Assembly (NCBI RefSeq): GCF_010692685.1
Contig: NZ_JAAHGU010000008.1
Span: 41,619-105,618, forward strand
DNA: 64,000 nucleotides
Source of the DNA: Okeania sp. SIO2F5
GTDB lineage: Bacteria; Cyanobacteriota; Cyanobacteriia; Cyanobacteriales; Microcoleaceae
Direction of reading: 5' to 3'
Position numbers and translations under genes: made by a program. Under the pieces are notes generated by a model, which was not told the DNA's origin, did not search any database, and saw only the letters and a program-made list of their open reading frames with translations. Shown piece by piece: positions 24,176 to 42,371 of the stretch. The first letter of the stretch is position 1, and every line of letters begins with the position of its first letter.

Positions 24176-27100
24176 GTGAGGATAGTCAAGATAAATATGA
24201 AAATACAGAAGAATCAAGAATATAGCTATCAAGTAGGTAATTATTTAGCATTAGAACATCCCACTTATGTTAGACGCTCGGCAGATAAAGAGTTATTTAA
24301 TGCTTTGAAGAAAGGTGAATATTGTTATGTATTAAGTTCTCCACAAACGGGAAAATCAAGTTTAAAAATTAGAACAATACAACTTTTGCAAGCAGAAAAT
24401 ATTATCTGTATTGCTTTAGATATGACTAGAGTTAATAATAAACTTTTGACTATAGAAGAATGGTATGAGCAAATAATTTTAACTTTAGAGAAGACTTTTT
24501 TATTTCCTCGACATTTCCCGGAATTATGGTGGGAAGAAATGGCATATCTGCCTGGGGATGAAAGATTATTTATTTTTATTGAAGAGGTATTGTTAGTTAA
24601 TACTCAAAATGAGAAAATAGTAATTTTTATAGATGAAGTTAATGATGAGAGTGTTGTTAATTCGGGCTTTAGTAGTTTAGGGGTATTAATTGATTATTGT
24701 ATTGAGCAAAGAACAAATAATCCAAAATTTCAACGTTTAACATTTGCTTTGTTAGGAACAACTATACCCGATAATTTAATAGATAGATGTAGATATATTG
24801 AACTTAATAGTTTCAAAAAAGAAGAAGTAGCTCATTTAGCGCAGCTATTTAAAGGCATAGTTAAAAAGCCACTACAAGTTATAGAAAAAATATTATATTG
24901 GTCGGGTGGACAACCATTTTTAACGCAAAAACTGTGTCAAATAGCGATTGACTATCTGGGAGAAAGAAGAGGAGAAGAAAATTATAATGAGATAGCTTTA
25001 ATAGAAGATTTAGTAAAAATTTGTGTTATAGAAAACTGGGATTCACAAGACTACCCAATTCATTTCAATAAAATACAAAATCTTTTGCTGAAGAATATAC
25101 AGAAATCTACCAGTCATTTAGAAATATATCAACAAATATTAAAACATGGTAGATTAAGACCGCCTGGTCAAGATAATCAAAAATTTAAAAATGATGCGAT
25201 CGCTAATCATCAATGGGAAATTAAAGAGTTATTGAGGTCTGGTGTAGCGAAAATAAATCGTGGTTTTTTAGAGGTATACAGTCCGATATATGCAGAAATT
25301 TTTAATCAAGAATGGGTACAACAATATTTACCAACAGTAACTACAGCTCCTCAAACTAATCCTCAAATATTAGAATTAAATGACCAGGAAAAAATATCTC
25401 TAATGGTATCTGATTTCTCTAATGAAGAAGGAAGAAGGAAGAAGGAAGAAGGAAGGAATAAAAAGTGGATAGGGACTCAAACCCTAACTAATTATCAAAA
25501 CCCTGTAGACGGCGGGGTATTAAACCCAAAAGAAAAAGATAATAAAAATAATAATTCAAATGAAATTCAGGTTCAGCAACAACATGAATTAGGGGAAATA
25601 ACAGCACATAAAAATCAGAATAATTCCCATAATATTCCGCTTAAATTACTAGAGAAACAACAGGAGAAACCAGTACAAAAAAATCAGAATAATCCCAATA
25701 ATATTCCGCTTAAATTACTAGAGAAACAACAGGAGAAACCAACAGAAAAAATTAATAACAAAGTTCAGAAAAAACAGATAGTTCGGAAAAAAGTCAAAAC
25801 ATCTTCAAATCAGCAGAATAAACTGAAACTAGGAGTGGCGGGTTTAGTTATAGTCTCAATAACAGCAATGACAGTAGTTGGTTGGGCAACTAAACTTTTT
25901 AAAGATACACAAAATCAACTTCAAAGAGCAGAATATCAACTAGAAAAAGCACAGTACGAACTTCAAGAAGCACAAGAAGGTACAAAACTAGAACACAAAG
26001 GAATTACTGCTTTAAGAAAATTTGAAATTGCAGAAATAGAAGCATTACTATCAGCAATGCAAGCTGGAAAAGAACTAAAAGAATTAGTTGGAGGCGATCG
26101 CCCACTTCAATATTATCCAGCTACAAGTCCCATATTTGCCTTACAACAAATACTCAACAATATTCACGAGAAAAATCAAATTCCCAACGTCAAAAAAATT
26201 ACCATGAGTCCTGATGGCCAACTACTCGCCACAGTTAACAATGATGGTACAGCCAAAATCCTCAAATACTCAGGTCAGTCTGTAGCTCAATTAAGAGGAC
26301 ATCAGGGCAAAGTTTCTCACATTAAATTTTCACCAGAAGGAAACATTCTAGCTACAGCAGGAGATGATAGTACAGTTAGAATCTGGGATTTTCTGGGTAA
26401 GCAGCAAGTAGAACTAAAAGGCCATGAAGGTCAAATTTGGCAAATTACTTTCAGTCCTGATGGTAAATATATAGCTACAGCAGGAGAAGATGGCACTGCA
26501 AGAATTTGGAATATATCAGGCAAGAAAATAGCGACTCTCAAAAAACATCAAGGTCGAATCTTAGATGTCACATTTAGCCCTGATGGTAAATATATAGCTA
26601 CTGCTGGATGGGATGGGACTGCGAGAATTTGGAATCGATCCGGAAGACAGTTGGCCAGACTCAGGGGGCATAAAGGTAGCGTCGAAAAAGTAATATTTAG
26701 TACAGATGGTCAACGTTTAGCCACTGCTGGATGGGATGGCACAATTAGGGTTTGGCGACGTAGTTCCGGTAAACTACTAACCAAACTTAAGGGAGGTGAA
26801 GGCGGGATCTGGAATGTTAGCTTTAGTCCGGATGGCAAAAGTTTGGCTACAGCAGGAGAAGATGGATCAGTCGCGATCTGGGATACTTCAGGCCAAGTAT
26901 TATCAAAACTTCCTGGACATCAAGGAATTGTCACCAGTGTTAGTTTTAGTCCAGATGGTGAACGTTTAGCTACAGCAGGTAGTGACGGCAGTGTGAAAAT
27001 TTGGAACAATAATGGTAATTTGTTAGCCAATCTTAGAGGACATCAAGGCAGGGTTTGGGAAGTTAACTTTAACGCTGATGGACAACGACTATTAACTTTG

Positions 27101-28075
27101 GGAGAGGATGGTACAGGTAGAATTTGGTCACTAGAAGGTAATCACGAGACAACTCTTCAGGGAAACTCCGATATTTTTGGGTCAGTAAGTTTTAGTTCTA
27201 ATAGTCAGAAATTAGCAACAGCAGCAGTTGATGGTACTGCCCGCATCTGGGATATTTCGGGAAAACCTTTAGCTCAATTTAATGGATATCTGGGAATGTT
27301 TGGGGATATGAGTTTTAGTCCTGATGGTCAACGTCTAGCTACTGCGGGAGATAGTGGTCAGGGGAGAATTTGGAAGATTTCAGGAGAAGAGTTGATAGAG
27401 CTAAAAGGTAAAAAGGGCAGAGCAAAGCAAATTGGTTTTAGCCCAGATGGGCAACGTTTAGCAACGGTGGGAGAAGATGGTGTTGCCCGCATCTGGAATA
27501 ATTCTGGTCAACAGTTGGCTGAGTCAAAAGGGCATAATGGTCGTGTGTTGGATGTGGTTTTTAGTCCAGACGGACAATATATTGGTACTGCTGGAGAGGA
27601 TGGTATTGCCAAAATCTGGGATAGTTCTTTTCAGCTTGTGTCAGAATTGAAAATTCTTTCAAGTTGGGTCGAGAGTATGGCTTTTAGTCCATCTGGAAAG
27701 TACATAGTGACGGGAGATAGCAATGGGGTAGTCAAAATTTGGGATTTTTCGGGGAATCAAATTGCTGATCTGAAGGGCAATATAGGTAGTGTGAATAATT
27801 TGACTTTTAGTGCTGATGGGGAGCAGGTGGCTAGTATGGGCAAAGATGGAATGGTAAGAATTTGGGATATTACTGGACGTCAATTAGCTCAATTTGAGAA
27901 TGCTAAGGCTTTAAGTTTGGATGGTAAATATGTGGCAACTTTGGTGGATAATAATTTACAGTTGTGGCGCGTGAAAGGATTAAATGATTTGTTGAAAGGT
28001 TCTTGTGATTGGCTTCAAGATTATTTTATTACTCATCCCAAGGTGAAGGATGATTTAGAAATTTGTGATATGTAG
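24176..28075 (+). CDS. AAA-like NTPase, repeat-rich linker, single TM, 14 WD40 repeats and a Cys-containing C-terminal tail.
   Basis: Walker A SSPQTGKSS and Walker B IVIFIDEV. TM is LGVAGLVIVSITAMTVVGWATKLF. There are 14 IW(D/N)xSG-type WD repeats. The tail is SCDWLQDYFITHPKV...EICDM. Confidence 0.85.
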   Translation: MRIVKINMKIQKNQEYSYQVGNYLALEHPTYVRRSADKELFNALKKGEYCYVLSSPQTGKSSLKIRTIQLLQAENIICIALDMTRVNNKLLTIEEWYEQIILTLEKTFLFPRHFPELWWEEMAYLPGDERLFIFIEEVLLVNTQNEKIVIFIDEVNDESVVNSGFSSLGVLIDYCIEQRTNNPKFQRLTFALLGTTIPDNLIDRCRYIELNSFKKEEVAHLAQLFKGIVKKPLQVIEKILYWSGGQPFLTQKLCQIAIDYLGERRGEENYNEIALIEDLVKICVIENWDSQDYPIHFNKIQNLLLKNIQKSTSHLEIYQQILKHGRLRPPGQDNQKFKNDAIANHQWEIKELLRSGVAKINRGFLEVYSPIYAEIFNQEWVQQYLPTVTTAPQTNPQILELNDQEKISLMVSDFSNEEGRRKKEEGRNKKWIGTQTLTNYQNPVDGGVLNPKEKDNKNNNSNEIQVQQQHELGEITAHKNQNNSHNIPLKLLEKQQEKPVQKNQNNPNNIPLKLLEKQQEKPTEKINNKVQKKQIVRKKVKTSSNQQNKLKLGVAGLVIVSITAMTVVGWATKLFKDTQNQLQRAEYQLEKAQYELQEAQEGTKLEHKGITALRKFEIAEIEALLSAMQAGKELKELVGGDRPLQYYPATSPIFALQQILNNIHEKNQIPNVKKITMSPDGQLLATVNNDGTAKILKYSGQSVAQLRGHQGKVSHIKFSPEGNILATAGDDSTVRIWDFLGKQQVELKGHEGQIWQITFSPDGKYIATAGEDGTARIWNISGKKIATLKKHQGRILDVTFSPDGKYIATAGWDGTARIWNRSGRQLARLRGHKGSVEKVIFSTDGQRLATAGWDGTIRVWRRSSGKLLTKLKGGEGGIWNVSFSPDGKSLATAGEDGSVAIWDTSGQVLSKLPGHQGIVTSVSFSPDGERLATAGSDGSVKIWNNNGNLLANLRGHQGRVWEVNFNADGQRLLTLGEDGTGRIWSLEGNHETTLQGNSDIFGSVSFSSNSQKLATAAVDGTARIWDISGKPLAQFNGYLGMFGDMSFSPDGQRLATAGDSGQGRIWKISGEELIELKGKKGRAKQIGFSPDGQRLATVGEDGVARIWNNSGQQLAESKGHNGRVLDVVFSPDGQYIGTAGEDGIAKIWDSSFQLVSELKILSSWVESMAFSPSGKYIVTGDSNGVVKIWDFSGNQIADLKGNIGSVNNLTFSADGEQVASMGKDGMVRIWDITGRQLAQFENAKALSLDGKYVATLVDNNLQLWRVKGLNDLLKGSCDWLQDYFITHPKVKDDLEICDM

Positions 28076-33070: not shown

Positions 33071-36000
33071 ATGTCAGAATATTACAATGCCTTCATCTCT
33101 TACGGACGTGCCGACAGTAAATCTTTTGCTACAAAACTCTATGAAAAACTCACAGAAAATGTTCTAAAAATCTGGTTTGACCAAAATGATATTCCTCTGG
33201 GAGTAGACTTTCAAAATCAAATTGATGATGGCATCATAAAAGCTGATAATTTTCTGTTTATTATTGCGCCTCATTCTGTTAATTCTCCCTACTGTCTCAA
33301 AGAAATAGAATTAGCTATTAAATACAATAAACGAATTATTCCCCTGCTTCACGTCGAACAAATTAATTATGAAATTTGGCAAGAACGAAATCCTCAAGGA
33401 ACTTTAGAAGAATGGGAGGTTTATCAGGAGAAAGGTAAACATTCCAGCTTTCCCAATATGCACTCAGAAATAGGTAGAATTAACTGGGTTTATTTTCGGG
33501 AAAATATTGATAATTTTGATAAAAGTTTAACTGACTTAATCGCATTATTTAATCGTCACCAAGATTATGTAAAACAACATACTAAGATTTTAGTTAAAGG
33601 TTTAGACTGGGAAAATAATCAAAAACAAACTCGTTACTTGTTAATTGGAAAAGAACGTCTACAAGCAGAACAATGGTTAAAGATTAAATTTACAGAAGAA
33701 CAACCCCCTTGTATTCCTACAGATTTACATTGTGAATTTATCTGTGAAAGTGATAAAAATGCTAATAATTTAATGACTCAAGTTTTCCTGGCTTTTGCTG
33801 AAGCAAATAAAAGTTTTATGGAGCAAATCAGGAAAAGTTTAATTAGAGAAGGAATTACTGTCTGGAGTTCTCATGCCGATATTAAAACTGGAAAAGATTT
33901 TCAAATAGAAATTAATCAAGGAATTGCTGGAGCGGATAATCTAATTTATTTATTGTCTCCTGAAGCCATAAAATCTGAATATTGCCAACAGGAATTAACT
34001 TATGCTTTGAGTCTGAATAAACGAATTATTCCTCTTTTAATTTCTCCTACAGATTTAACAGAAATTTCTCCAGAAATAAGTAATTTACAATTCATTGATT
34101 TTACTGCATCAGAGCCAGAAGGAATAGATAAACTCCTGAAAGAATTAAAGTCAGAAGCTGTTTATTATCAACGGCATAAAATTTTATTAGTCAAAGCTTT
34201 GAAATGGCTGTCACAAAATCGTAACCCTAGTATTTTATTACGGGGTTATAATCTCGAACAATCTCAAAGTTGGCTGGAATTAGCTGGAAATAGAACGGCT
34301 AATTTACCTACATATTTACAAACAGAATTTATTGCCGAAAGTGCTAAACAACCACCTAATTTAGTTTTAGATGTTTTTGTTTCTTATTCCAGAGCAGATT
34401 CAGATTTTGCTAGACAGTTAAATGAGGCATTACAAACTCAGGGAAAAACTACTTGGTTTGACCAGGAAAGTATTGCTACAGGCACAGATTTTCAACAGGA
34501 AATTAATCGCGGAATTGAACAGTCGGATAATTTCTTATTTATTATTTCTCCAGATTCAGTAAATTCTCCCTATTGTGGAAATGAAGTAGAGTATGCCAAA
34601 AGTTTAAATAAACGTTTTGTGACAGTATTATATCGAAAAGTTGATAGTAAGGAGTTGCATCCAGAATTAGCAAAAGTGCAATGGTTAGATTTTCATCGGT
34701 ATGGAGGAGAATTTTATACTAACTTTAGCGAGTTAGTACGTTTTTTGGATACTGATAGAGATTATGTCAGAAACCATACAAAGTTTTCACAACAAGCATT
34801 GGACTGGGAGGAAAAAGCTAGTGAAGATTTATTGCTACGAGGAAGTGAACTGGCGATCGCTAAAAACTGGTTACAGGAAGCTCTTAACACTAACAAACAA
34901 CCCCCACTCAACAAGTTGCAAAAGAAATTTATTGAAGCTAGTGACGACCTACATACTAGCATCCAACAAGCAAGAGCAAAACGCAGACAACTTGATATCA
35001 CAACTGCTTGGGGAATTACAGTAGGTTCCCTGTTGGCAGTTATGATTAGCACTGGGTTGTGGCAAAATTCTAGACATGAGCATAAAAAAGCTCAACTTAA
35101 TTTAGCACAGTCTCTTGCTCGCTCTTCCTCCTCTCTATTTGTCGGTAACAAAGAATTAGAAGCATCGATTGAAGTTATTAAAGCGGGGAAAAATTTGCAA
35201 AGATACAAGGTGAAAGACGCAGAAGTGATCGACGCATTGCAACAGTCTGTTTATAGTGGCAGTGAAAGCAACAGATTACAAGGACACAAAAATTCTATTC
35301 GCTCTCTGAGTTTTAGTCCAGATGGCAAAATATTGGCATCAGGCAGCGATGATAAACAGATTAAGCTTTGGAATATGGAAACGGGAGCAGAAATACGAAC
35401 TTTCTCTGGACACGATCGCTCTGTTATTAGTGTTTGCTTTAGTGCGGATGGGAAAATTTTAGCATCGGCAGGAAAAGATAAGAAGATAAAACTTTGGGAT
35501 GTAGAAACAGGTAAGGAAATTGATACTTTCTCCGGACATACTGACTGGATAAATAGCATGAATTTTAGTCCAGATGGTAAGATTTTAGTATCAGGGAGTA
35601 AGGATAATACGATTAAACTCTGGAATGTAGAGACAGGCAAAGAAATTTACACCCTTTTCGGGCATCAGGATAGTGTAATTAGTATCAGTTTTAGTCCTGA
35701 CGGTAAAACTTTAGTATCGGGAAGTAAAGATAAAACAATTAAGTTTTGGGATGTAGAGACAGGTAGAGAAATTTACACCCTCTTCGGACATAATGGTTTG
35801 GTAAGTAGTGTCCGTTTTAGTCCCGATGGCAAGATATTAGCAAGCGGTAGTTATGATAAGACTGTTAAACTTTGGGATTTAGAAACAGGTGAGGAAATTC
35901 GGACTTTGACAGGACATTTTAGTTCAATTATGAGTGTGAGTTTTAGTCCGAATGGTAAACATTTAGCGACTGGTAGCAAAGACCGGATAGTTAAGCTATG

Positions 36001-37174
36001 GGATATAGAAACAGGAAATGAAATTCGCTCTTTTTATGGTCACGATGCTTGGGCATTTCGGGTAAGTTTTAGTCCAGATGGCAAGATATTAGCATCGGGT
36101 AGTGGTGACAAAACCATCAGACTCTGGAATTTAGAAACGAGAAGGGAACTTAGTACACTTAAAGGACATGATGATTCGATTCAACATTTAAGTTTTCCTC
36201 TAGCTTCATCCCCTCAAATATATAAATCTGAGAAAGAGATGATATTTGTTTCTGGTGGCGCTGATAAAACTGTCAAGATATGGGATTTGAAGACTAAAAC
36301 TCAAGATACTTTGAAGGGACATGATGACTCGGTAATGAAAATTAGCGTTAGTCCGGATGGCAAGACCATTGCTTCTGCGGGTGAAGATAGCACTATTATT
36401 TTATGGGATGTAGAAACAAAACAAGAGATTCATCGACTTGAAGGTCATACCGATGCAGTCAAGGCGATTAGTTTTAGTCCGGATGGCAACATCTTAGCTT
36501 CTGGCAGTAAAGATACTACTATCAAACTTTGGAATTGGATAACAAAAGAAGAAATAGGCAATTTAAAAGGTCACGAAAGCACGGTAATGACAATGAGTTT
36601 TAGTCCGGATGGCAAGACCTTAGCTTCTGGTAGTAAGGACAATATAATTAACCTCTGGAATATAGAAACAATGGAAAAAATGGAACCTCTCATAAACGAC
36701 AATCAGAGTTCTAATTTTAGTGTCAGTTTCAGTCCTGATGGTAAGACCTTAGCTGCTGGAGGCGATCGCAATCTTGTTACTTTATGGGATGTGGAAAAAA
36801 GAGAAAAAGTTTTCACTTTCAAAGGTCATAGTAGTTCTATTAACAGCGTTAGTTTTAGTCCGGATGGTAAGATTTTAGCTTCTGGAAGTTCTGACAAAAC
36901 AATTAAACTGTGGAACCCGAAACAGGGAAATTCTATTTTGACATTTCACGGACATGAAGACTCAGTTAATAGTGTCAGTTTTAGTCCGGATGGTAAAGTC
37001 TTAATATCTGGTAGTGATGATAAAACAATTAGACTTTGGGATGTAGAAAAACTAGATTTAGAGGTAGATTTAAACGACCTAATGCTCCGTAGTTGTAATT
37101 GGGTGCGTGGTTATTTACAGCATAATCCTTATGTGGAAGAGGAGAATAGAAACTTGTGCGATAATATTGGTTAA
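33071..37174 (+). CDS. Three tandem TIR domains, a single TM, 14 WD40 repeats and a Cys-containing C-terminal tail.
   Basis: TIR1 is aa 5-100 (FISYGRAD...SPYCLKEIELA). TIR2 is aa 235-325 (...SEYCQQELTYAL). TIR3 is aa 432-520 (DVFVSYSRADS...SPYCGNEVEYAK). TM is ITTAWGITVGSLLAVMISTGLW. There are 14 KLWD/NxETG repeats. The tail is SCNWVRGYLQHNPYV...LCDNIG. Confidence 0.85.
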   Translation: MSEYYNAFISYGRADSKSFATKLYEKLTENVLKIWFDQNDIPLGVDFQNQIDDGIIKADNFLFIIAPHSVNSPYCLKEIELAIKYNKRIIPLLHVEQINYEIWQERNPQGTLEEWEVYQEKGKHSSFPNMHSEIGRINWVYFRENIDNFDKSLTDLIALFNRHQDYVKQHTKILVKGLDWENNQKQTRYLLIGKERLQAEQWLKIKFTEEQPPCIPTDLHCEFICESDKNANNLMTQVFLAFAEANKSFMEQIRKSLIREGITVWSSHADIKTGKDFQIEINQGIAGADNLIYLLSPEAIKSEYCQQELTYALSLNKRIIPLLISPTDLTEISPEISNLQFIDFTASEPEGIDKLLKELKSEAVYYQRHKILLVKALKWLSQNRNPSILLRGYNLEQSQSWLELAGNRTANLPTYLQTEFIAESAKQPPNLVLDVFVSYSRADSDFARQLNEALQTQGKTTWFDQESIATGTDFQQEINRGIEQSDNFLFIISPDSVNSPYCGNEVEYAKSLNKRFVTVLYRKVDSKELHPELAKVQWLDFHRYGGEFYTNFSELVRFLDTDRDYVRNHTKFSQQALDWEEKASEDLLLRGSELAIAKNWLQEALNTNKQPPLNKLQKKFIEASDDLHTSIQQARAKRRQLDITTAWGITVGSLLAVMISTGLWQNSRHEHKKAQLNLAQSLARSSSSLFVGNKELEASIEVIKAGKNLQRYKVKDAEVIDALQQSVYSGSESNRLQGHKNSIRSLSFSPDGKILASGSDDKQIKLWNMETGAEIRTFSGHDRSVISVCFSADGKILASAGKDKKIKLWDVETGKEIDTFSGHTDWINSMNFSPDGKILVSGSKDNTIKLWNVETGKEIYTLFGHQDSVISISFSPDGKTLVSGSKDKTIKFWDVETGREIYTLFGHNGLVSSVRFSPDGKILASGSYDKTVKLWDLETGEEIRTLTGHFSSIMSVSFSPNGKHLATGSKDRIVKLWDIETGNEIRSFYGHDAWAFRVSFSPDGKILASGSGDKTIRLWNLETRRELSTLKGHDDSIQHLSFPLASSPQIYKSEKEMIFVSGGADKTVKIWDLKTKTQDTLKGHDDSVMKISVSPDGKTIASAGEDSTIILWDVETKQEIHRLEGHTDAVKAISFSPDGNILASGSKDTTIKLWNWITKEEIGNLKGHESTVMTMSFSPDGKTLASGSKDNIINLWNIETMEKMEPLINDNQSSNFSVSFSPDGKTLAAGGDRNLVTLWDVEKREKVFTFKGHSSSINSVSFSPDGKILASGSSDKTIKLWNPKQGNSILTFHGHEDSVNSVSFSPDGKVLISGSDDKTIRLWDVEKLDLEVDLNDLMLRSCNWVRGYLQHNPYVEEENRNLCDNIG

Positions 37175-37508
37175 ATCAAAGTGGGTATTCAATAATTAAC
37201 AATTATTAATGGCTTTGTTGCATGAATGTTGCGATCGCAGATGACTACCTTTAACTAAATTTTCTGGGGTTGCACATTATGGAATGATATTGCCAAAAAT
37301 TGGTTTAGATTTTGACTAAAAATAACCATTAATTAATCATTCTAGCAATTGATTAATCCACAATCCAATTCAATCAAAAATATCAAATCATTCGTCACTG
37401 TGCAACGCCAATTTTCTTATCGACTAGGGCAAATGTGGCTGCATCCAATTATAGATTTTTCTATTCCTCCAGAAGCAGTTTTTTTTTCGTTTACCAGCTT
37501 GGCAACTT

Positions 37509-38003
37509 TTGGAAAGTAGTAAAGACCAATTATTAGCCACAACTAAACTAGAAAAACTTTCATCAATAGTGATTATTGCTGCTGCATATAGAGATGCACA
37601 ATTAACTGTTGATAAACAAAATTTTCCTTTACCTGCTGCTGTTAGTTACTGGCGTTCTCAAAAACTGCGTAATGTATTTATAGGAGGAGAAATTCATGCT
37701 TATATGGTTCATCATTTCCTGAACCAAAGATTAGTTATACCTATTCCTGATTTATGGCTAATTGGGGTAGCTATTGTGTTAGGTAAAGGAATAGTATTAA
37801 TCTTAGAAAAAAAATCTCCATTACGCCAACAAAAAGGGATTTTTTTATTCCTATTTTTACTAAATATAATTTATGGTTTAGCTAGTCTACAAATTTATAT
37901 TACTGCTGCAATTTTATTGCCTTTGTTCTTGCCTAGTTTAACATTTTGGGTTTGTATATTTTTCTATTTAATAAAACCAAAATCGACAATTAAATTAGTT
38001 TGA
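37509..38003 (+). CDS. Small multi-pass membrane protein with no recognisable domain. It has a TTG start, so the true start is uncertain.
   Basis: 164-aa ORF whose C-terminal two-thirds are 3-4 hydrophobic helices. It sits between the TIR-WD40 gene and the cyclase gene. Confidence 0.4.
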   Translation: MESSKDQLLATTKLEKLSSIVIIAAAYRDAQLTVDKQNFPLPAAVSYWRSQKLRNVFIGGEIHAYMVHHFLNQRLVIPIPDLWLIGVAIVLGKGIVLILEKKSPLRQQKGIFLFLFLLNIIYGLASLQIYITAAILLPLFLPSLTFWVCIFFYLIKPKSTIKLV

Positions 38004-38007
38004 CAAT

Positions 38008-40311
38008 TTAAATGGAAGAGGAGTGTTTTCTATCAACCCCCATCCCCTCACCCCAAGAAGGTCGCACATGATAAGTAGGAAATGTACCATAACCCTTAGC
38101 CAAAGGAGTTTTTCCCACATAATCGCAAGTAAATTCCTTTACCCCCTCCGAAGCTACCATTGCAGCAAACTCCTGACTCGAATAAACTTTCCCTGGTGGA
38201 GTAATAGGTTCAATTCTGGCAGCATAATTTACATGAGTACCACTGTAGGTTGTATCCCCAGTGATGGGATTAGTATATTTATAAACCACCCCTGTATGTA
38301 ACGCTACCCGTAAATTCAAACTTGCAGGCAACCCTACTTTTTCCCAATCTGTACTCTGAACAAGATCACATACTTCTAAGGCAAATAAACCTGCATCCCT
38401 TACATTAGAGAAGACATAATATAAAGCATCTCCCCAAGTATTTTTCATCACTGGTTTATAAGAAGATTGAACCTCAAACTTTGCCACCGCACCGAAAAAA
38501 TGTTCTACAAATATACTAATCTGGTTTTCCTTCAACTTAGAATAACTCTTGACATCTGCAAATAACAACGCCATAATTAACCGATTTTCGTCCTCTGGCG
38601 CAGAGGTTGGTTGTAGGGGAGTTGTCGGTGTAGATAGTGTATTCAATATCTCTACTTTCTGTGTCATCACAGATTGTAAAATCTGCTGAATATCAATGAT
38701 TTCCACATTATCATTCCATTGTCGCCAAAATTCTACAGCCCTTGCTGTACCACCTATCCCACCAATTTGTTGATTCCAAACAGCCATTGGTATAAGTTCT
38801 GTATCCAACTGTTCTGCTCGCATTTTTGCCATCCCGTAGAGAATATTATTAGTGTATTCATAGGAAATATTGCTGTTTTCAAGATTATAATGAGTTGGAA
38901 TAATCACTTCTGTTGCTTTTTCCAAAACTTCATCAAATCGTTCTAGCCAAGTGCTATTAGGAATAATATCAATAGAATTTTTGATAAATTGTTCTCGCTC
39001 ATGGGGTAAGACAATATGAGCCTCTCCTTGAAGTTCATATAATGCTTCCAAAAATAAAATATCACTACCACAAGCTGCAGCAGCATAACCCAATCGAGCA
39101 TCTAACTGAATCAGGCGATCGCGAATCGCTTGATAAACCTGTAACTCTATTTCTGGAGGAAACCTCGGTGGTGTGCGACCTGGTTCATCAATCATGTGAC
39201 CGCTAAATACTACCACTCTAGGAATTTGAAAACAGTGCTTAATCAATTCCATATCCCCCTGGCGATATTGTACAATCAAAGTAGCATTACGACGAGTCGA
39301 TCTTAAATCCCCCAATTTCCCCCTAGCTAATTCCACCGCTTGATTATACCAATTTTCTGCCTCTAAATTTTCCCCTAAAATCAAAGCTACTTCTCCCAAA
39401 GTTGCCAGTAACCAGTAGTCATTCTCACTCCTATGGGAAACTGCTGGGAGTTTAGCCAGACATTTTTCCTGTACTTCAGCAGCGATCGCCTTTGCTATTT
39501 CAGCATCTCCCATCAACATTGTCATTGTCGCGGCATTTATCCCCGGATAATAATCCCCACTCATTTGATAAGCTTGTTGATATCGTTGAGCTGCCAATGC
39601 TATTTGTTGGGTACTTTCCTCTGGAGAGCTTGCTTGCTGCCACAAATCTTTATGAGTTCTGGCTAACAAACAAATAGTTTCCTCGTCATTTTTGCCAGAG
39701 TTTACTAACTCTAATAATAAATTATTAGCCCGTTGAGTTGCTCCACTTCGAGCTAAACTCAAAACTAAAAGTTGTTGTAAACGGATATCATTCGGCCATT
39801 CTTTTAACCCTTCCGATAAAATATCATAAGCCATTAATGGCTCCCCAAGTTTCAGGATATATTCACCCAAAATCCGAAAAATTTCTGGGTAACGCAAATG
39901 GAGATTAATAGTTTCTCGACGAATTGTTTGTAAACTTTTTAAATTTAGTTGGGATGATTTTTTTAAACTTTCTAAAATTAACGATAAATTATTATCATCA
40001 ACTGTAGCAGTTTTTTCAGTAGTAGTTTCGCTTCCTTCTATTCGATAACCTATGGCTAAAAGAGTTTTAATTACTCCCATAGAAACAACGCGGTCATATT
40101 CTTTTTCTGACTCTGGCAATTCTTCATAAGGCACTAAACCAGGATGTAATTTTTGGGCATCATCTCGATTTTTTCCATATTTCCAACCTTCAGAAATTCG
40201 CTGTTTTGCCCAAATGTCATGGGTATTTTTAGCCAGTAATTCAGTAATTTTTAAATGTTCTGTTGTCAGATTTACCTTGGAAGTATCTATTGGATCTGGT
40301 TTATAGTTCAA
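38008..40311 (-). CDS. RyR domain, TPR repeats, a Rossmann-like (SLOG/DprA-like?) domain and a class III nucleotidyl cyclase.
   Basis: N-terminus matches the RyR-domain consensus (ELLAKNTHDIWAKQRISEGWKYG..RDD..KLHP.LVPYEELPESEKEYDR). The C-terminal cyclase motifs are FADVKSYS, GDALYYVF and LRVALHTGVVY...GTHVNYAARIE. Confidence 0.8.
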   Translation of the reverse strand: MNYKPDPIDTSKVNLTTEHLKITELLAKNTHDIWAKQRISEGWKYGKNRDDAQKLHPGLVPYEELPESEKEYDRVVSMGVIKTLLAIGYRIEGSETTTEKTATVDDNNLSLILESLKKSSQLNLKSLQTIRRETINLHLRYPEIFRILGEYILKLGEPLMAYDILSEGLKEWPNDIRLQQLLVLSLARSGATQRANNLLLELVNSGKNDEETICLLARTHKDLWQQASSPEESTQQIALAAQRYQQAYQMSGDYYPGINAATMTMLMGDAEIAKAIAAEVQEKCLAKLPAVSHRSENDYWLLATLGEVALILGENLEAENWYNQAVELARGKLGDLRSTRRNATLIVQYRQGDMELIKHCFQIPRVVVFSGHMIDEPGRTPPRFPPEIELQVYQAIRDRLIQLDARLGYAAAACGSDILFLEALYELQGEAHIVLPHEREQFIKNSIDIIPNSTWLERFDEVLEKATEVIIPTHYNLENSNISYEYTNNILYGMAKMRAEQLDTELIPMAVWNQQIGGIGGTARAVEFWRQWNDNVEIIDIQQILQSVMTQKVEILNTLSTPTTPLQPTSAPEDENRLIMALLFADVKSYSKLKENQISIFVEHFFGAVAKFEVQSSYKPVMKNTWGDALYYVFSNVRDAGLFALEVCDLVQSTDWEKVGLPASLNLRVALHTGVVYKYTNPITGDTTYSGTHVNYAARIEPITPPGKVYSSQEFAAMVASEGVKEFTCDYVGKTPLAKGYGTFPTYHVRPSWGEGMGVDRKHSSSI

Positions 40312-40861: not shown

Positions 40862-41200
40862 CTAACCAAGCAAAAGTCCTTTATACCACCCAACGTCTGG
40901 GCAAAACTTTAAATCCTTTTTCAGTTCTGAATAGTTAATTTCCATCCACTTGCTCATTGCCACTGGCTTCTCTAGTTTTATTCTATAACCTTGATCTGCC
41001 CAAACAATTTTCAGATTCGGGGCCTCATTTGATGACTTGAAGAAATATAAACTTAGCTGCTGTACAATACCTATACAATTCCGGCAAAACTTGGTAAAAC
41101 CTGAGTAATGCCAGTCAAGATGTTTGCTTCTTGCTTCAACCTGGGAGGCCGCCCTCTTCCAGTTCACAAGCGTAAATTCGGGTACAGCCTACCCTATTTT
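40862..41200 (-). ncRNA. Putative TnpB-associated omega (right-end) RNA region.
   Basis: Inferred only by analogy. In IS605-family elements the guide RNA overlaps the tnpB 3' end and the right end. Boundaries were not determined. Confidence 0.2.
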
Positions 41201-42371
41201 TTTGATTAATTTCCCCATACTGAGATAACACCAGTGCTGCATTCAAGTCCCGGTCTATTATCATTCCAAAGTTAGGGCAATCAAAGGTGCGGTCTTTTAG
41301 CTTTAATTCTTGATGAATATGACCACAACTATGACAAGTTTTAGAAGATGGAAACCACTGGTCAGCTAGCACTACTGTCCCACCGGAGCTTACGATTTTG
41401 GTTGTCAATCGTTGCCGAAACTGATAAAATCCTTGCCTAGCTATTGATGCTGCTAATTTACCATTTTGCATCATTCCTTTCACATTTAAACTCTCTAAGC
41501 AGACGTGCTTGACTTGAGTCACTAATTTTGTAGTAGTTTTCTCTATGAAATCTCTACGCACGTTAGCAATACGACAATGGTACTTCGCGAGTTTTTTGTA
41601 ATATTTAATCGCATTTTTTGAAGGTGGTTTACCTTTACCTCCTACTTGTTTATTGCGATTGCGCCATTGAAACTTAGCCAGGTTTAATTGCTCTAGTTTA
41701 ATAGAGTCTGGGAGACTTACAACTTCATTTTCTCTCTTTTTTTGGTTTGCTATACTTGCAAATTGTTTGACTCCAACATCTATACCAAAAGTTTCGTATT
41801 GTCGCTTATCTAATAGGGGATGAACTGGCAACTTCTCAGCTTCAATACTAAAACTAACAAACCATTTTTCCCCTGTTCTACTAATAGTAAAAGTCTGACT
41901 TGCTGTGGTGTAAGGTATTGATTCCCATAATCGAAAAGTCCCTAGTGTTGGTATTTTAATTTTTTTACCAGGGTTAATTGTAACTTTTCCATTACCGTCA
42001 TAAACAGTAAAAGATTGTCTGTCTTTTTTCCTTTTCAACTTAGGATACTTACTGGTTCCTTCTTTATACCGTTTAAATGCTTCACCTAGATGTTGAAAAG
42101 CACTTTGATAAATGCGGGACGAATAATTGTTGATCCAGGCATATTCTGGCTGCTTTTTTACATAGTTAGTAAAGACTTTTTTAGCTTCTAAAATACGTAA
42201 TGCGTAACTCAAGCTCACTTCCTGACCACGTTTGTTAACTTTGGTCATGGCAGAAGTTCCATTAACCATACTGAGGCCATAGTTGTAAACAAAACGAGCA
42301 TAACCAGCACATTTCGCCATAAATGAGCGCTCCTGGTTACTGAGTTTTAATTCAAGTTTTTTGGCGTACAA
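41136..42371 (-). CDS. tnpB: TnpB (OrfB) RNA-guided endonuclease-like transposase accessory protein.
   Basis: N-terminal HTH (KCAGYARFVYNYGL), RuvC-like blocks, the zinc ribbon CHSCGHIHQELKLKDRTFDCPNFG, and C-terminal DRDLNAAL. Confidence 0.9.
   Translation of the reverse strand: MYAKKLELKLSNQERSFMAKCAGYARFVYNYGLSMVNGTSAMTKVNKRGQEVSLSYALRILEAKKVFTNYVKKQPEYAWINNYSSRIYQSAFQHLGEAFKRYKEGTSKYPKLKRKKDRQSFTVYDGNGKVTINPGKKIKIPTLGTFRLWESIPYTTASQTFTISRTGEKWFVSFSIEAEKLPVHPLLDKRQYETFGIDVGVKQFASIANQKKRENEVVSLPDSIKLEQLNLAKFQWRNRNKQVGGKGKPPSKNAIKYYKKLAKYHCRIANVRRDFIEKTTTKLVTQVKHVCLESLNVKGMMQNGKLAASIARQGFYQFRQRLTTKIVSSGGTVVLADQWFPSSKTCHSCGHIHQELKLKDRTFDCPNFGMIIDRDLNAALVLSQYGEINQKNRVGCTRIYACELEEGGLPG

Follow-up and report, generated by a model that had tools for sequence, protein, structure and literature searches.

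The 64,000-nucleotide stretch of Okeania sp. SIO2F5 analysed here in full (contig NZ_JAAHGU010000008.1, positions 41,619 to 105,618; hereafter the window) contains two genes that together probably form an uncharacterised Thoeris-like immune relay, in which an alarm derived from NAD would be passed on as a cyclic-nucleotide signal. Gene A encodes three TIR domains and an array of WD40 repeats. Gene C, on the opposite strand, encodes an RyR domain, a TPR-S region, a SLOG domain and a class III nucleotidyl cyclase. A small open reading frame (ORF) lies between them as part of a pseudogene remnant. All three ORFs lie where an initial annotation, made from the sequence alone, had placed them. Table 1 gives the coordinates.

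Table 1. Genes, domains and other features of the locus, in window coordinates, with lengths in amino acids (aa); HMM, hidden Markov model.
Feature	Coordinates	Strand	Basis
Gene A: TIRx3, hydrophobic helix and 14 WD40 repeats, 1367 aa	33071..37174	+	ORF, Pfam
TIR domain 1, residues 5-132, CLKE motif, C75-E78	33083..33466	+	HMM limits and motif
TIR domain 2, residues 235-358, CQQE motif, C305-E308	33773..34144	+	HMM limits and motif
TIR domain 3, residues 434-557, CGNE motif, C502-E505	34370..34741	+	HMM limits and motif
Hydrophobic stretch, residues 641-662, probable single membrane helix	34991..35056	+	Kyte-Doolittle 19-mer mean 1.6, borderline
Fourteen WD40 repeats	35261..37090	+	Pfam WD40, 13 stretches; motif count 13 clear and 1 degenerate
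Pseudogene remnant, 3' end of TIRx3-CHASE2 gene, frameshift near 37487	37412..37994	+	tblastn with L006/L074 proteins
Gene C: RyR, TPR-S, SLOG and class III cyclase, 767 aa, TTG start	38008..40311	-	ORF, Pfam
Class III nucleotidyl cyclase, residues 581-749	38065..38571	-	Pfam Guanylate_cyc, E=3e-6
SLOG domain, YpsA-like, residues about 352-545	38677..39258	-	SLOG fold
TPR-S / MAP3K_TRAF_bd-like TPR region, residues 165-353	39253..39819	-	Pfam
RyR domain (R12-type), residues 3-92, H31/W34/H56/D73	40036..40305	-	Pfam PF02026, E=3e-33

Gene C had been described as a fusion of RyR, TPR, a Rossmann-like domain and a class III cyclase. Pfam bears this out for the RyR, TPR and cyclase parts, and the Rossmann-like part proves to be a YpsA-like SLOG domain. 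The best single-domain profile match of the RyR part is to the animal RyR2 repeats (E=3e-26). In the TPR region, a TPR-S match at residues 165-263 (E=9e-25) is overlapped by a MAP3K_TRAF_bd match at residues 175-353 (E=1e-12). Residues 352-562 have no Pfam assignment; they were modelled from 32 sequences with a mean predicted local distance difference test (pLDDT) score of 88.8, and this middle part of the protein has the Rossmannoid fold of the SLOG superfamily. The C-terminal part scores 27.3 bits against Guanylate_cyc, for which the cut-off is 21.9, and a profile built on it retrieves class III cyclases from the PDB, with E-values from 5e-8. It is of a type other than the housekeeping cyclases CyaA-E, a possibility that the initial annotation had raised against its own proposal. 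SIR2 was not matched in gene C by Pfam, and neither Pfam nor NCBIfam found a domain resembling CMP hydrolase or nucleoside 2-deoxyribosyltransferase. We propose that gene C is both the signal receptor and the output enzyme of the pair.

Residue conservation was counted in an alignment of 121 sequences, that is, 120 homologues plus the window protein. The metal-binding aspartates D586 and D628 and the arginine R699 are present in 119-120 of them, and the cyclase domain is probably active. The position that distinguishes adenylyl (Lys) from guanylyl (Glu) cyclases is Asn in 113 sequences, including N624 of the window protein, in the motif K-N-T-W-G-D. The second specificity position varies among N, S, T, D and G, and the canonical base-specifying pair (Lys/Asp for ATP, Glu/Cys for GTP) is absent from gene C. 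The position of the transition-state Asn is held by Ser in 84 of the 121 sequences and by Asn in the window protein.

Phage proteins with an RyR domain (PF02026) either hydrolyse 2'/3' cyclic ADP-ribose (2'/3'cADPR), as RyDEP does, or sequester it with nanomolar affinity (PMC13232231, a preprint of May 2026). RyDEP has a catalytic dyad, H75/D117, and contacts its ligand through W78 and H100; eight phage homologues of RyDEP were also assayed, of which none cleaved 2'/3'cADPR and six bound it, despite high conservation (PMC13232231). A tblastn search with the RyR domain of gene C found matches in 300 phage records, and the same search with the rest of gene C found none in phages. The reference sequence for our comparison was gene 78 of phage DyoEdafos (138 aa), the sole RyR-like ORF of that phage, which is flanked by genes of NAD-salvage type and which we take to be RyDEP. 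In an alignment with RyR domains from the cyclase family, its H75, W78, H100 and D117 fall in invariant columns, and the matching residues of the window protein, identically spaced, are H31, W34, H56 and D73. Among the 121 family sequences these residues are kept in 118, 116, 115 and 93, respectively. By its residues, therefore, the RyR domain of gene C has a ligand site of the RyDEP type (His, Trp, His, Asp). An analogy between this domain and cADPR signalling, which had been offered as only suggestive, is now directly supported by these four residues together with the phage work (PMC13232231). The gene C family may be the host-side counterpart of the phage RyR sponges and glycosidases.

Gene A has three Pfam TIR_2 matches (E=4e-80), and the limits of the TIR domains were taken from our own HMM. 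Each TIR domain is followed by a helical extension of about 75 residues, and the three units are 28-35% identical in pairwise comparison. The Glu of the CxxE motif in the third TIR domain aligns with the Glu of 'NYELD' in AbTir and of 'CWDELE' in Cat1, a CRISPR-associated TIR protein used with AbTir as alignment reference. We take that residue to be catalytic in those enzymes, and hence the CxxE Glu to be the catalytic Glu of gene A. The description of gene A as three tandem CxxE-type TIR domains on a WD40 scaffold thus holds, through the TIR_2 matches, the HMM and the fourteen repeats; the repeat count suggests that the array probably folds as two seven-bladed propellers. The membrane anchor in the same description is less firm: residues 641-662 are the most hydrophobic stretch of the protein and sit between its TIR half and its WD40 half, but their Kyte-Doolittle score is borderline. 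Should this helix be membrane-spanning, the propellers would be on the other side of the membrane from the TIR domains, in parallel with the extracytoplasmic CHASE2 domain of a paralogue described below. Pfam finds no NTPase domain in gene A, which lacks the STAND NTPase of NLR-like and Avs proteins, and a classification as NLR was rejected on this ground. No Thoeris subtype can be assigned, as matches of the gene A TIR domains to ThsB, ThcB4 and other models all fall under the family cut-offs. We propose that gene A is the sensor and signal generator.

Gene C is a member of a large family whose architecture is fixed: homologues number more than 1,300 at E<=1e-10, and nearly all of the best 120 listed align over their full length. 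Their sources include Cyanobacteria, Pyrinomonadaceae, Chloroflexi and Bipolaricaulia. Matches occur in 238 stretches of a species-representative genome collection. Gene neighbourhoods were compared at 81 loci (80 from this collection, to which the loci of three close homologues were added and from which three duplicates were dropped); their genes were called and then screened for TIR domains by an HMM whose seeds Pfam had confirmed. The cyclase gene has a TIR gene directly beside it in 32 of the 81 loci, and within two genes in 37, as against 14 of 660 genes (about 2%) at greater distance. Loci with a flanking TIR gene are about 10-fold in excess of the local background expectation, with a binomial tail of 4e-23. 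When the loci are reduced, roughly and for illustration, to 9 arrangement classes among an assumed 25 lineages, the tail is 4e-7. Conserved co-occurrence, on which the initial annotation had made its proposal depend, is thus present. Of the 94 neighbouring TIR domains, 92 retain the catalytic-type Glu that the annotation had read in gene A.

The pairing occurs in every relative orientation. TIR and cyclase genes converge in the window, L006 and L057, in Okeania, Dapis and Terriglobales, the last with a TIR-Sel1 gene and a gap of 44 nucleotides (nt). They diverge in L003, L033 and L059: in Microcoleaceae MO_207.B10 the divergent pair has wholly different flanks, and in Pyrinomonadaceae and Gemmatimonadales the gene for a TIR protein of about 500 aa is followed by one for a repeat protein of about 1,400-1,500 aa (nSTAND1-TPR by Pfam in the Pyrinomonadaceae example scanned, with a WD40 match in Gemmatimonadales). 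In L036, L040, L045, L062, L067 and L072 the genes are co-directional, with gaps of -3 to 44 nt. L008, L009 and L011 terminate within a convergent WD40 gene. TIR-linked loci are found in Cyanobacteria, Acidobacteriota, Bipolaricaulia and Gemmatimonadales, and a locus from Poribacteria has a TIR gene at 5 kb. The partners include TIRx3-WD40, TIRx3-CHASE2, TIR-Sel1 and TIR-nSTAND1-WD40 proteins, as well as TIR proteins with an adjacent nSTAND1-TPR gene. Adjacency persists through inversions and differing flanks, as comparison of L003 with L002 and L001 shows. Because the remaining loci carry housekeeping neighbours, the linkage between TIR and cyclase genes is frequent and non-obligatory.

The middle ORF (37509-38003) had been read as a small membrane protein with three or four transmembrane helices. 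The ORF and the hydrophobic segments counted as helices do exist, but they belong to a frameshifted remnant and not to a component of a system. By tblastn, the remnant represents the last 200 or so codons (residues 884-1081) of a TIRx3-CHASE2 gene whose intact form in relatives encodes 1085 aa; residues 884-908 align in frame 2 and residues 909-1081 in frame 3, at 79-81% identity. A poly-T run near 37487 is the site of the frameshift. The intact counterparts are proteins of 1067-1085 aa in Dapis and Okeania relatives (L006, L074), and Pfam finds three TIR_2 domains and CHASE2 in that of L006. In Dapis BLCC M126, a tandem array of TIRx3-CHASE2, TIRx3 and TIRx3-WD40 genes faces the cyclase gene; the window and O. 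hirsuta retain only the TIRx3-WD40 gene and the remnant, 583 nt long, which can be aligned over just 271 nt in L001 and 74 nt in L005. The ORF has no family match in Pfam, PADLOC or NCBIfam and holds no complete CHASE2 domain. With the frameshift, the shrinking alignment among relatives and the intact TIRx3-CHASE2 genes all pointing the same way, the middle ORF is, on these alignments, a decaying pseudogene and no third component, and its candidacy as a membrane effector was rejected. Among relatives, tandem arrays of TIRx3 paralogues have exchanged their C-terminal sensors (WD40, CHASE2 or none), and the arrays grow and decay between strains.

A profile of the TPR-S-SLOG region retrieves 7,346 representatives at 50% identity, of which 1,814 match at E<=1e-30. 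Most of the representatives scanned, including those that lack RyR, retain a core of TPR-S, SLOG and cyclase; P0177 and P0257 are too short to include a cyclase, and Pfam finds none in P0134 and P0190. The slot N-terminal to this core is occupied by RyR, by nothing, by cNMP_binding, GAF or nSTAND1, or by a second cyclase with NB-ARC (P0134, P0172, P0192 and P0197 are among the variants). In terms of architecture, RyR holds the slot of classical small-molecule-binding regulatory domains, and the variant with a domain for cyclic nucleotide monophosphates (cNMPs) at its N-terminus supports a cNMP as the likely product. Genes for cNMP-binding proteins lie within two genes of the cyclase in 3 of the 81 loci (L014, L040, L080), and one lies about 2.5 kb upstream in L044. 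A conserved cNMP-binding partner was rejected, these cases being too few.

The operon at 3012-15112 of L036, from Bipolaricaulia, begins with a TIR-nSTAND1-WD40 gene, followed with a 4-nt overlap (gap -3) by an RyR-TPR-S-SLOG-cyclase gene. It continues with genes for a SLOG(LSDAT_prok)-DUF4231-SLATT_1 protein, a 310-aa TIR protein and a TIR-WD40 protein. This mix of genes mirrors the co-occurrence of ThsH and ThsI that has been reported for cADPR-dependent Thoeris. The operon is a compact candidate for cloning. Distant TPR-S/SLOG relatives on proteobacterial plasmids also lie among TIR and DUF4231 genes. Rhizobium plasmid pCC511_4 (L086) and Caballeronia plasmid pSBC2-4 (L085) each combine a TRAFs-binding (TPR-S) gene with DUF4231 and several TIR genes; in L086, genes with the annotations 7-cyano-7-deazaguanine synthase (QueC-type) and HhH-GPD glycosylase are interspersed among them. 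In Sphaerothrix gracilis (L052, 9169-9939) and Almyronema epifaneia (L056, 9126-9884), a stand-alone gene precedes an RyR-less cyclase gene on the same strand; the gene in L052 matches LSDAT_prok SLOG, and the one in L056 clusters with it. Large genes with TPS-secretion domains follow the cyclase gene in L052, L056 and L077.

The flanks of the locus are 99.5% identical to Okeania hirsuta PAB10Feb10-1, which places the window in an Okeania-like member of Microcoleaceae and not in Nostocales, the setting assumed at first. Gene A is 97% identical to its O. hirsuta orthologue. The ratio of nonsynonymous (dN) to synonymous (dS) divergence from O. hirsuta is 0.17 for gene A and 0.20 for gene C, and both genes are under purifying selection. 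The locus is a mosaic. Against the same genome (L024), the glgC flank has a dS of only 0.003 and the RyR part one of 0.016; the value is 0.11 for the TIR part and climbs to 0.36-0.44 for the SLOG and cyclase parts, with SLOG at 0.44. The contrast of the flank and RyR part with the SLOG and cyclase parts points to allelic exchange, and suggests that recombination or allele replacement has occurred there.

Further genes surround the pair. An IS605-family OrfB/TnpB gene (41136-42371, minus strand; Cas12f1-like TNB, OrfB_IS605 and HTH) lies some 0.8 kb upstream of gene C. A 101-aa ORF without a family match (40862-41167, minus strand) overlaps the TnpB gene by about 30 nt. Some 5 kb upstream of gene A, a gene at 24176-28075 (plus strand) encodes a protein of 1299 aa with an N-terminal region of AAA_35-type NTPase followed by about 11 WD40 repeats, which may be another STAND-like sensor. 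The first 2 kb of this gene fall in the 2-kb bin of lowest GC content in the window (0.30).

The domain content, the conserved residues, the gene linkage and the purifying selection are the observations on which an interpretation can be built. On balance we lean towards a Thoeris-like TIR signalling pair, in which an ADP-ribose (ADPR) signal made by the TIR domains switches on the cyclase. A cue received through the WD40 propellers of gene A, or through CHASE2 in the paralogue, would bring the three TIR domains into an active assembly, which would convert NAD+ to an ADPR-derived messenger, predicted to be cADPR or a 2'/3' isomer. The RyR domain of gene C, its TPR-S-SLOG core, or both would bind this messenger. 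Since class III cyclases and RyDEP both act as dimers, gene C probably responds by forming or rearranging a dimer: the messenger would drive the homodimer into a state in which the class III active sites form and a cyclic nucleotide is made. In the predicted direction of flow, an alarm derived from NAD would end as a cNMP signal acting on targets encoded elsewhere. With its His/Asp dyad of the RyDEP type intact, the RyR domain may in addition degrade the messenger by hydrolysis, as a built-in off-switch or timer. Three features of Thoeris-type systems can be recognised. One is a TIR protein that has the Glu taken to be catalytic. Another is an adjacent putative effector whose domains, by homology, would be suited to TIR-derived ADPR signals. 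The third is a conserved pairing of TIR gene and effector, which the neighbourhood comparison found across several phyla and orientations. We are considerably more tentative about a stricter form of the proposal, and regard it as rather doubtful: that a cADPR isomer made by TIR domains has its physiological receptor, and possibly its timer, in the host RyR domain, which gates the cyclase in a two-messenger relay from NAD to cNMP. If it is true, the cNMP could carry an alarm of infection or damage beyond the sensing protein in filamentous cyanobacteria, and TIR, RyR, TRPM-type SLOG and ASK1-type TPR would be joined in one prokaryotic pathway, offering a tractable model for the long-debated link between cADPR and the ryanodine receptor.

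Several observations weigh against the favoured signalling pair. PADLOC and NCBIfam hold no model that matches gene C. The Asn at the Lys/Glu position, the variable second residue and the usual Ser at the transition-state position leave cyclase activity and product uncertain. Three candidate ligand-binding domains in gene C are more than a simple model needs, and the 64-kb window encodes no cNMP-binding protein and no killing effector. The remaining difficulties lend themselves to other explanations. Gene C is 45-60% identical across phyla, which is unusually high for an immune gene; the window flanks encode alpha-amylase, GlgC and DnaJ and form no defence island; and the loci without a TIR gene, including most of those in Nostocales, have housekeeping neighbours such as ResB, CheB and SecA. 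Such conservation, like the purifying selection and the housekeeping flanks here and at many other loci, would suit a non-immune circuit in which gene C is a housekeeping sensor of NAD+ or ADPR that sets cNMP levels, with the TIR domains as regulated enzymes of NAD+ turnover, for instance in envelope stress or in filament and cell-cell communication. The GAF and cNMP-binding N-terminal variants are typical of ordinary signalling proteins, the CHASE2 of the paralogue is an extracytoplasmic-type sensor, and a CRP-like gene lies directly upstream of the cyclase in L014. We nevertheless consider such physiology unlikely, for STAND NTPase partners and the SLOG-SLATT pore-type effector of L036 are typical of conflict systems, dS in this recombination mosaic reaches 0.44 as against 0.003 in the flank, its tandem TIR paralogues are decaying, and phages deploy RyR-domain sponges against such signals (PMC13232231). 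Were the linkage physiological after all, it would still reveal a path, not recognised before, by which NAD+ metabolism feeds into cNMP signalling in Acidobacteriota and in multicellular cyanobacteria.

The layout of the window raises a different doubt. Genes A and C are convergent and 834 nt apart, and hence are not co-transcribed; a pseudogene lies between them; TnpB adjoins gene C; and about half of the family loci (44 of 81) lack a TIR gene at that distance or closer, counted as two genes from the cyclase. Gene C might then be an independent cyclase that shares variable regions with TIR genes and has no functional coupling to them. This seems quite improbable given the roughly 10-fold excess of TIR-flanked loci, the overlap, in several phyla, of start and stop codons between cyclase and TIR genes, the survival of adjacency through inversions and exchanged flanks, and the presence in gene C of three domains with precedents for binding TIR products. 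The opposite order of events was implied by the analogy with Pycsar in the initial annotation: gene C would sense the trigger, and its cNMP would activate the TIR domains as NAD+-depleting effectors. Pycsar systems do pair class III-like cyclases with TIR effectors, and TIR-STAND proteins are often NADase effectors. The Sorek preprint, for its part, discarded TIRs in a Pycsar context. The analogy fits poorly here: neither gene A nor any of the nine partner TIR proteins scanned with Pfam has a cNMP-binding domain, and PADLOC finds no PycC match for gene C, an absence that also counts among the points against the signalling pair. A system of the Pycsar type was rejected on the first of these grounds. 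The TIR partners, moreover, bear repeats and domains of sensor type (WD40, Sel1, TPR, CHASE2), and the regulatory half of gene C is composed of domains of types with precedents for binding ADPR signals. We regard reversed flow as very unlikely. There remains the idea that gene C is mainly a brake, whose RyR domain hydrolyses TIR signals to guard against autoimmunity and whose cyclase reports or tunes recovery and does not execute defence. Self-limiting degradation of the signal does occur in CRISPR type III effectors, and the RyDEP His/Asp dyad is kept in the window protein, its Asp being present in 93 of the 121 sequences. Two findings make this a slim prospect, on a par with the independent cyclase: the eight phage homologues tested did not cleave 2'/3'cADPR, although six bound it (PMC13232231), and members without RyR keep the TPR-S-SLOG-cyclase core, so that the function of the core is independent of RyR.

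The signalling pair that we favour can be set beside several known systems. That the product of a TIR domain is read by a TPR-S or SLOG receptor is already known, by prediction and by experiment. As summarised in 10.1101/2023.05.26.542521, Burroughs & Aravind 2020 predicted that a sensor TPR recognises NAD+-derived signals and linked it to TIR, YpsA-type SLOG and LSDAT; the same source sorts 78 operons into Tpr alone, Tir-Tpr, YpsA-Tpr, Patatin-Tpr, LSDAT and calcineurin groups. Within that summary of the TPR-centred systems, a fusion to a cyclase or to RyR, as in gene C, is not mentioned. In type VIII Thoeris the effector ThsI combines a CMP-hydrolase domain with TPR, which is the presumed cADPR sensor, and is activated by canonical cADPR (10.64898/2025.12.03.692087). 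There too, a TIR gene adjoins an effector with a sensor TPR of the Aravind type. The output of ThsI is CMP-hydrolase-like, however, and that of gene C is a class III cyclase accompanied by RyR and SLOG; by this domain description the two are set apart. A small ThsB, moreover, takes the place of the triple-TIR/WD40 protein, and an operon that of the convergent layout of the window. A SLOG domain is the 3'cADPR receptor of ThsA, and SLATT is the effector of the cADPR-dependent type VII Thoeris; ThsH is reported to be found occasionally together with ThsI (10.64898/2025.12.03.692087). With type I Thoeris (ThsB and a SIR2-SLOG ThsA), gene C shares only the SLOG fold, having no SIR2 domain.

The claim that the combination is undescribed therefore stands in part. 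A TIR gene beside a TPR-S/SLOG receptor has been predicted, by the summary of Burroughs & Aravind 2020, and has been tested in type VIII Thoeris, but the architecture of the effector was not found described. No searchable paper or supplement contains a host RyR-TPR-S-SLOG-cyclase, its conserved pairing with TIR genes, or a cyclase as the output of a TIR pathway. PF20308, PF13281, PF02026, PF00211 and RyR are absent from the supplements of the Sorek preprint, as far as these are searchable, where the 'cyclase' entries concern CBASS only. Nothing on bacteria emerged from a literature search for DUF4071, PF13281 and PF20308, and PMC13232231 makes no mention of host RyR fusions or cyclases.

RyDEP and gene C belong to the same Pfam family (PF02026) and have the four ligand-site residues at identical spacing. 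RyDEP is a phage protein of viral evasion, whereas the RyR domain of gene C is host-encoded, fused to TPR-S, SLOG and cyclase, located beside TIR genes, and would serve the host pathway, either as its receptor or as its timer. The RyR-cyclase family would offer a simple soluble system in which to study how domains of RyR type handle cADPR-like ligands. Pycsar resembles the locus in its class III-like cyclase and in the possible presence of TIR domains, and its logic is opposite to that of the proposed relay. In plant TNL-EDS1 and bacterial TIR-STAND systems, repeat sensors activate TIR enzymes and the product is read by a separate receptor, and several partner genes in our loci likewise combine TIR and nSTAND1 with WD40 or TPR. 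Gene A lacks an NTPase and gene C is unrelated to EDS1, so that the likeness to these systems is one of analogy only. In the 11 validated types of Thoeris, the final effector either kills the cell or depletes a metabolite (2025 preprint 10.64898/2025.12.03.692087). If the relay proposed here is real, the output of a TIR pathway would instead be a second messenger, allowing the signal to be converted and amplified in place of immediate suicide, and a large uncharacterised family, with its 7,346 representatives, would gain a testable function.

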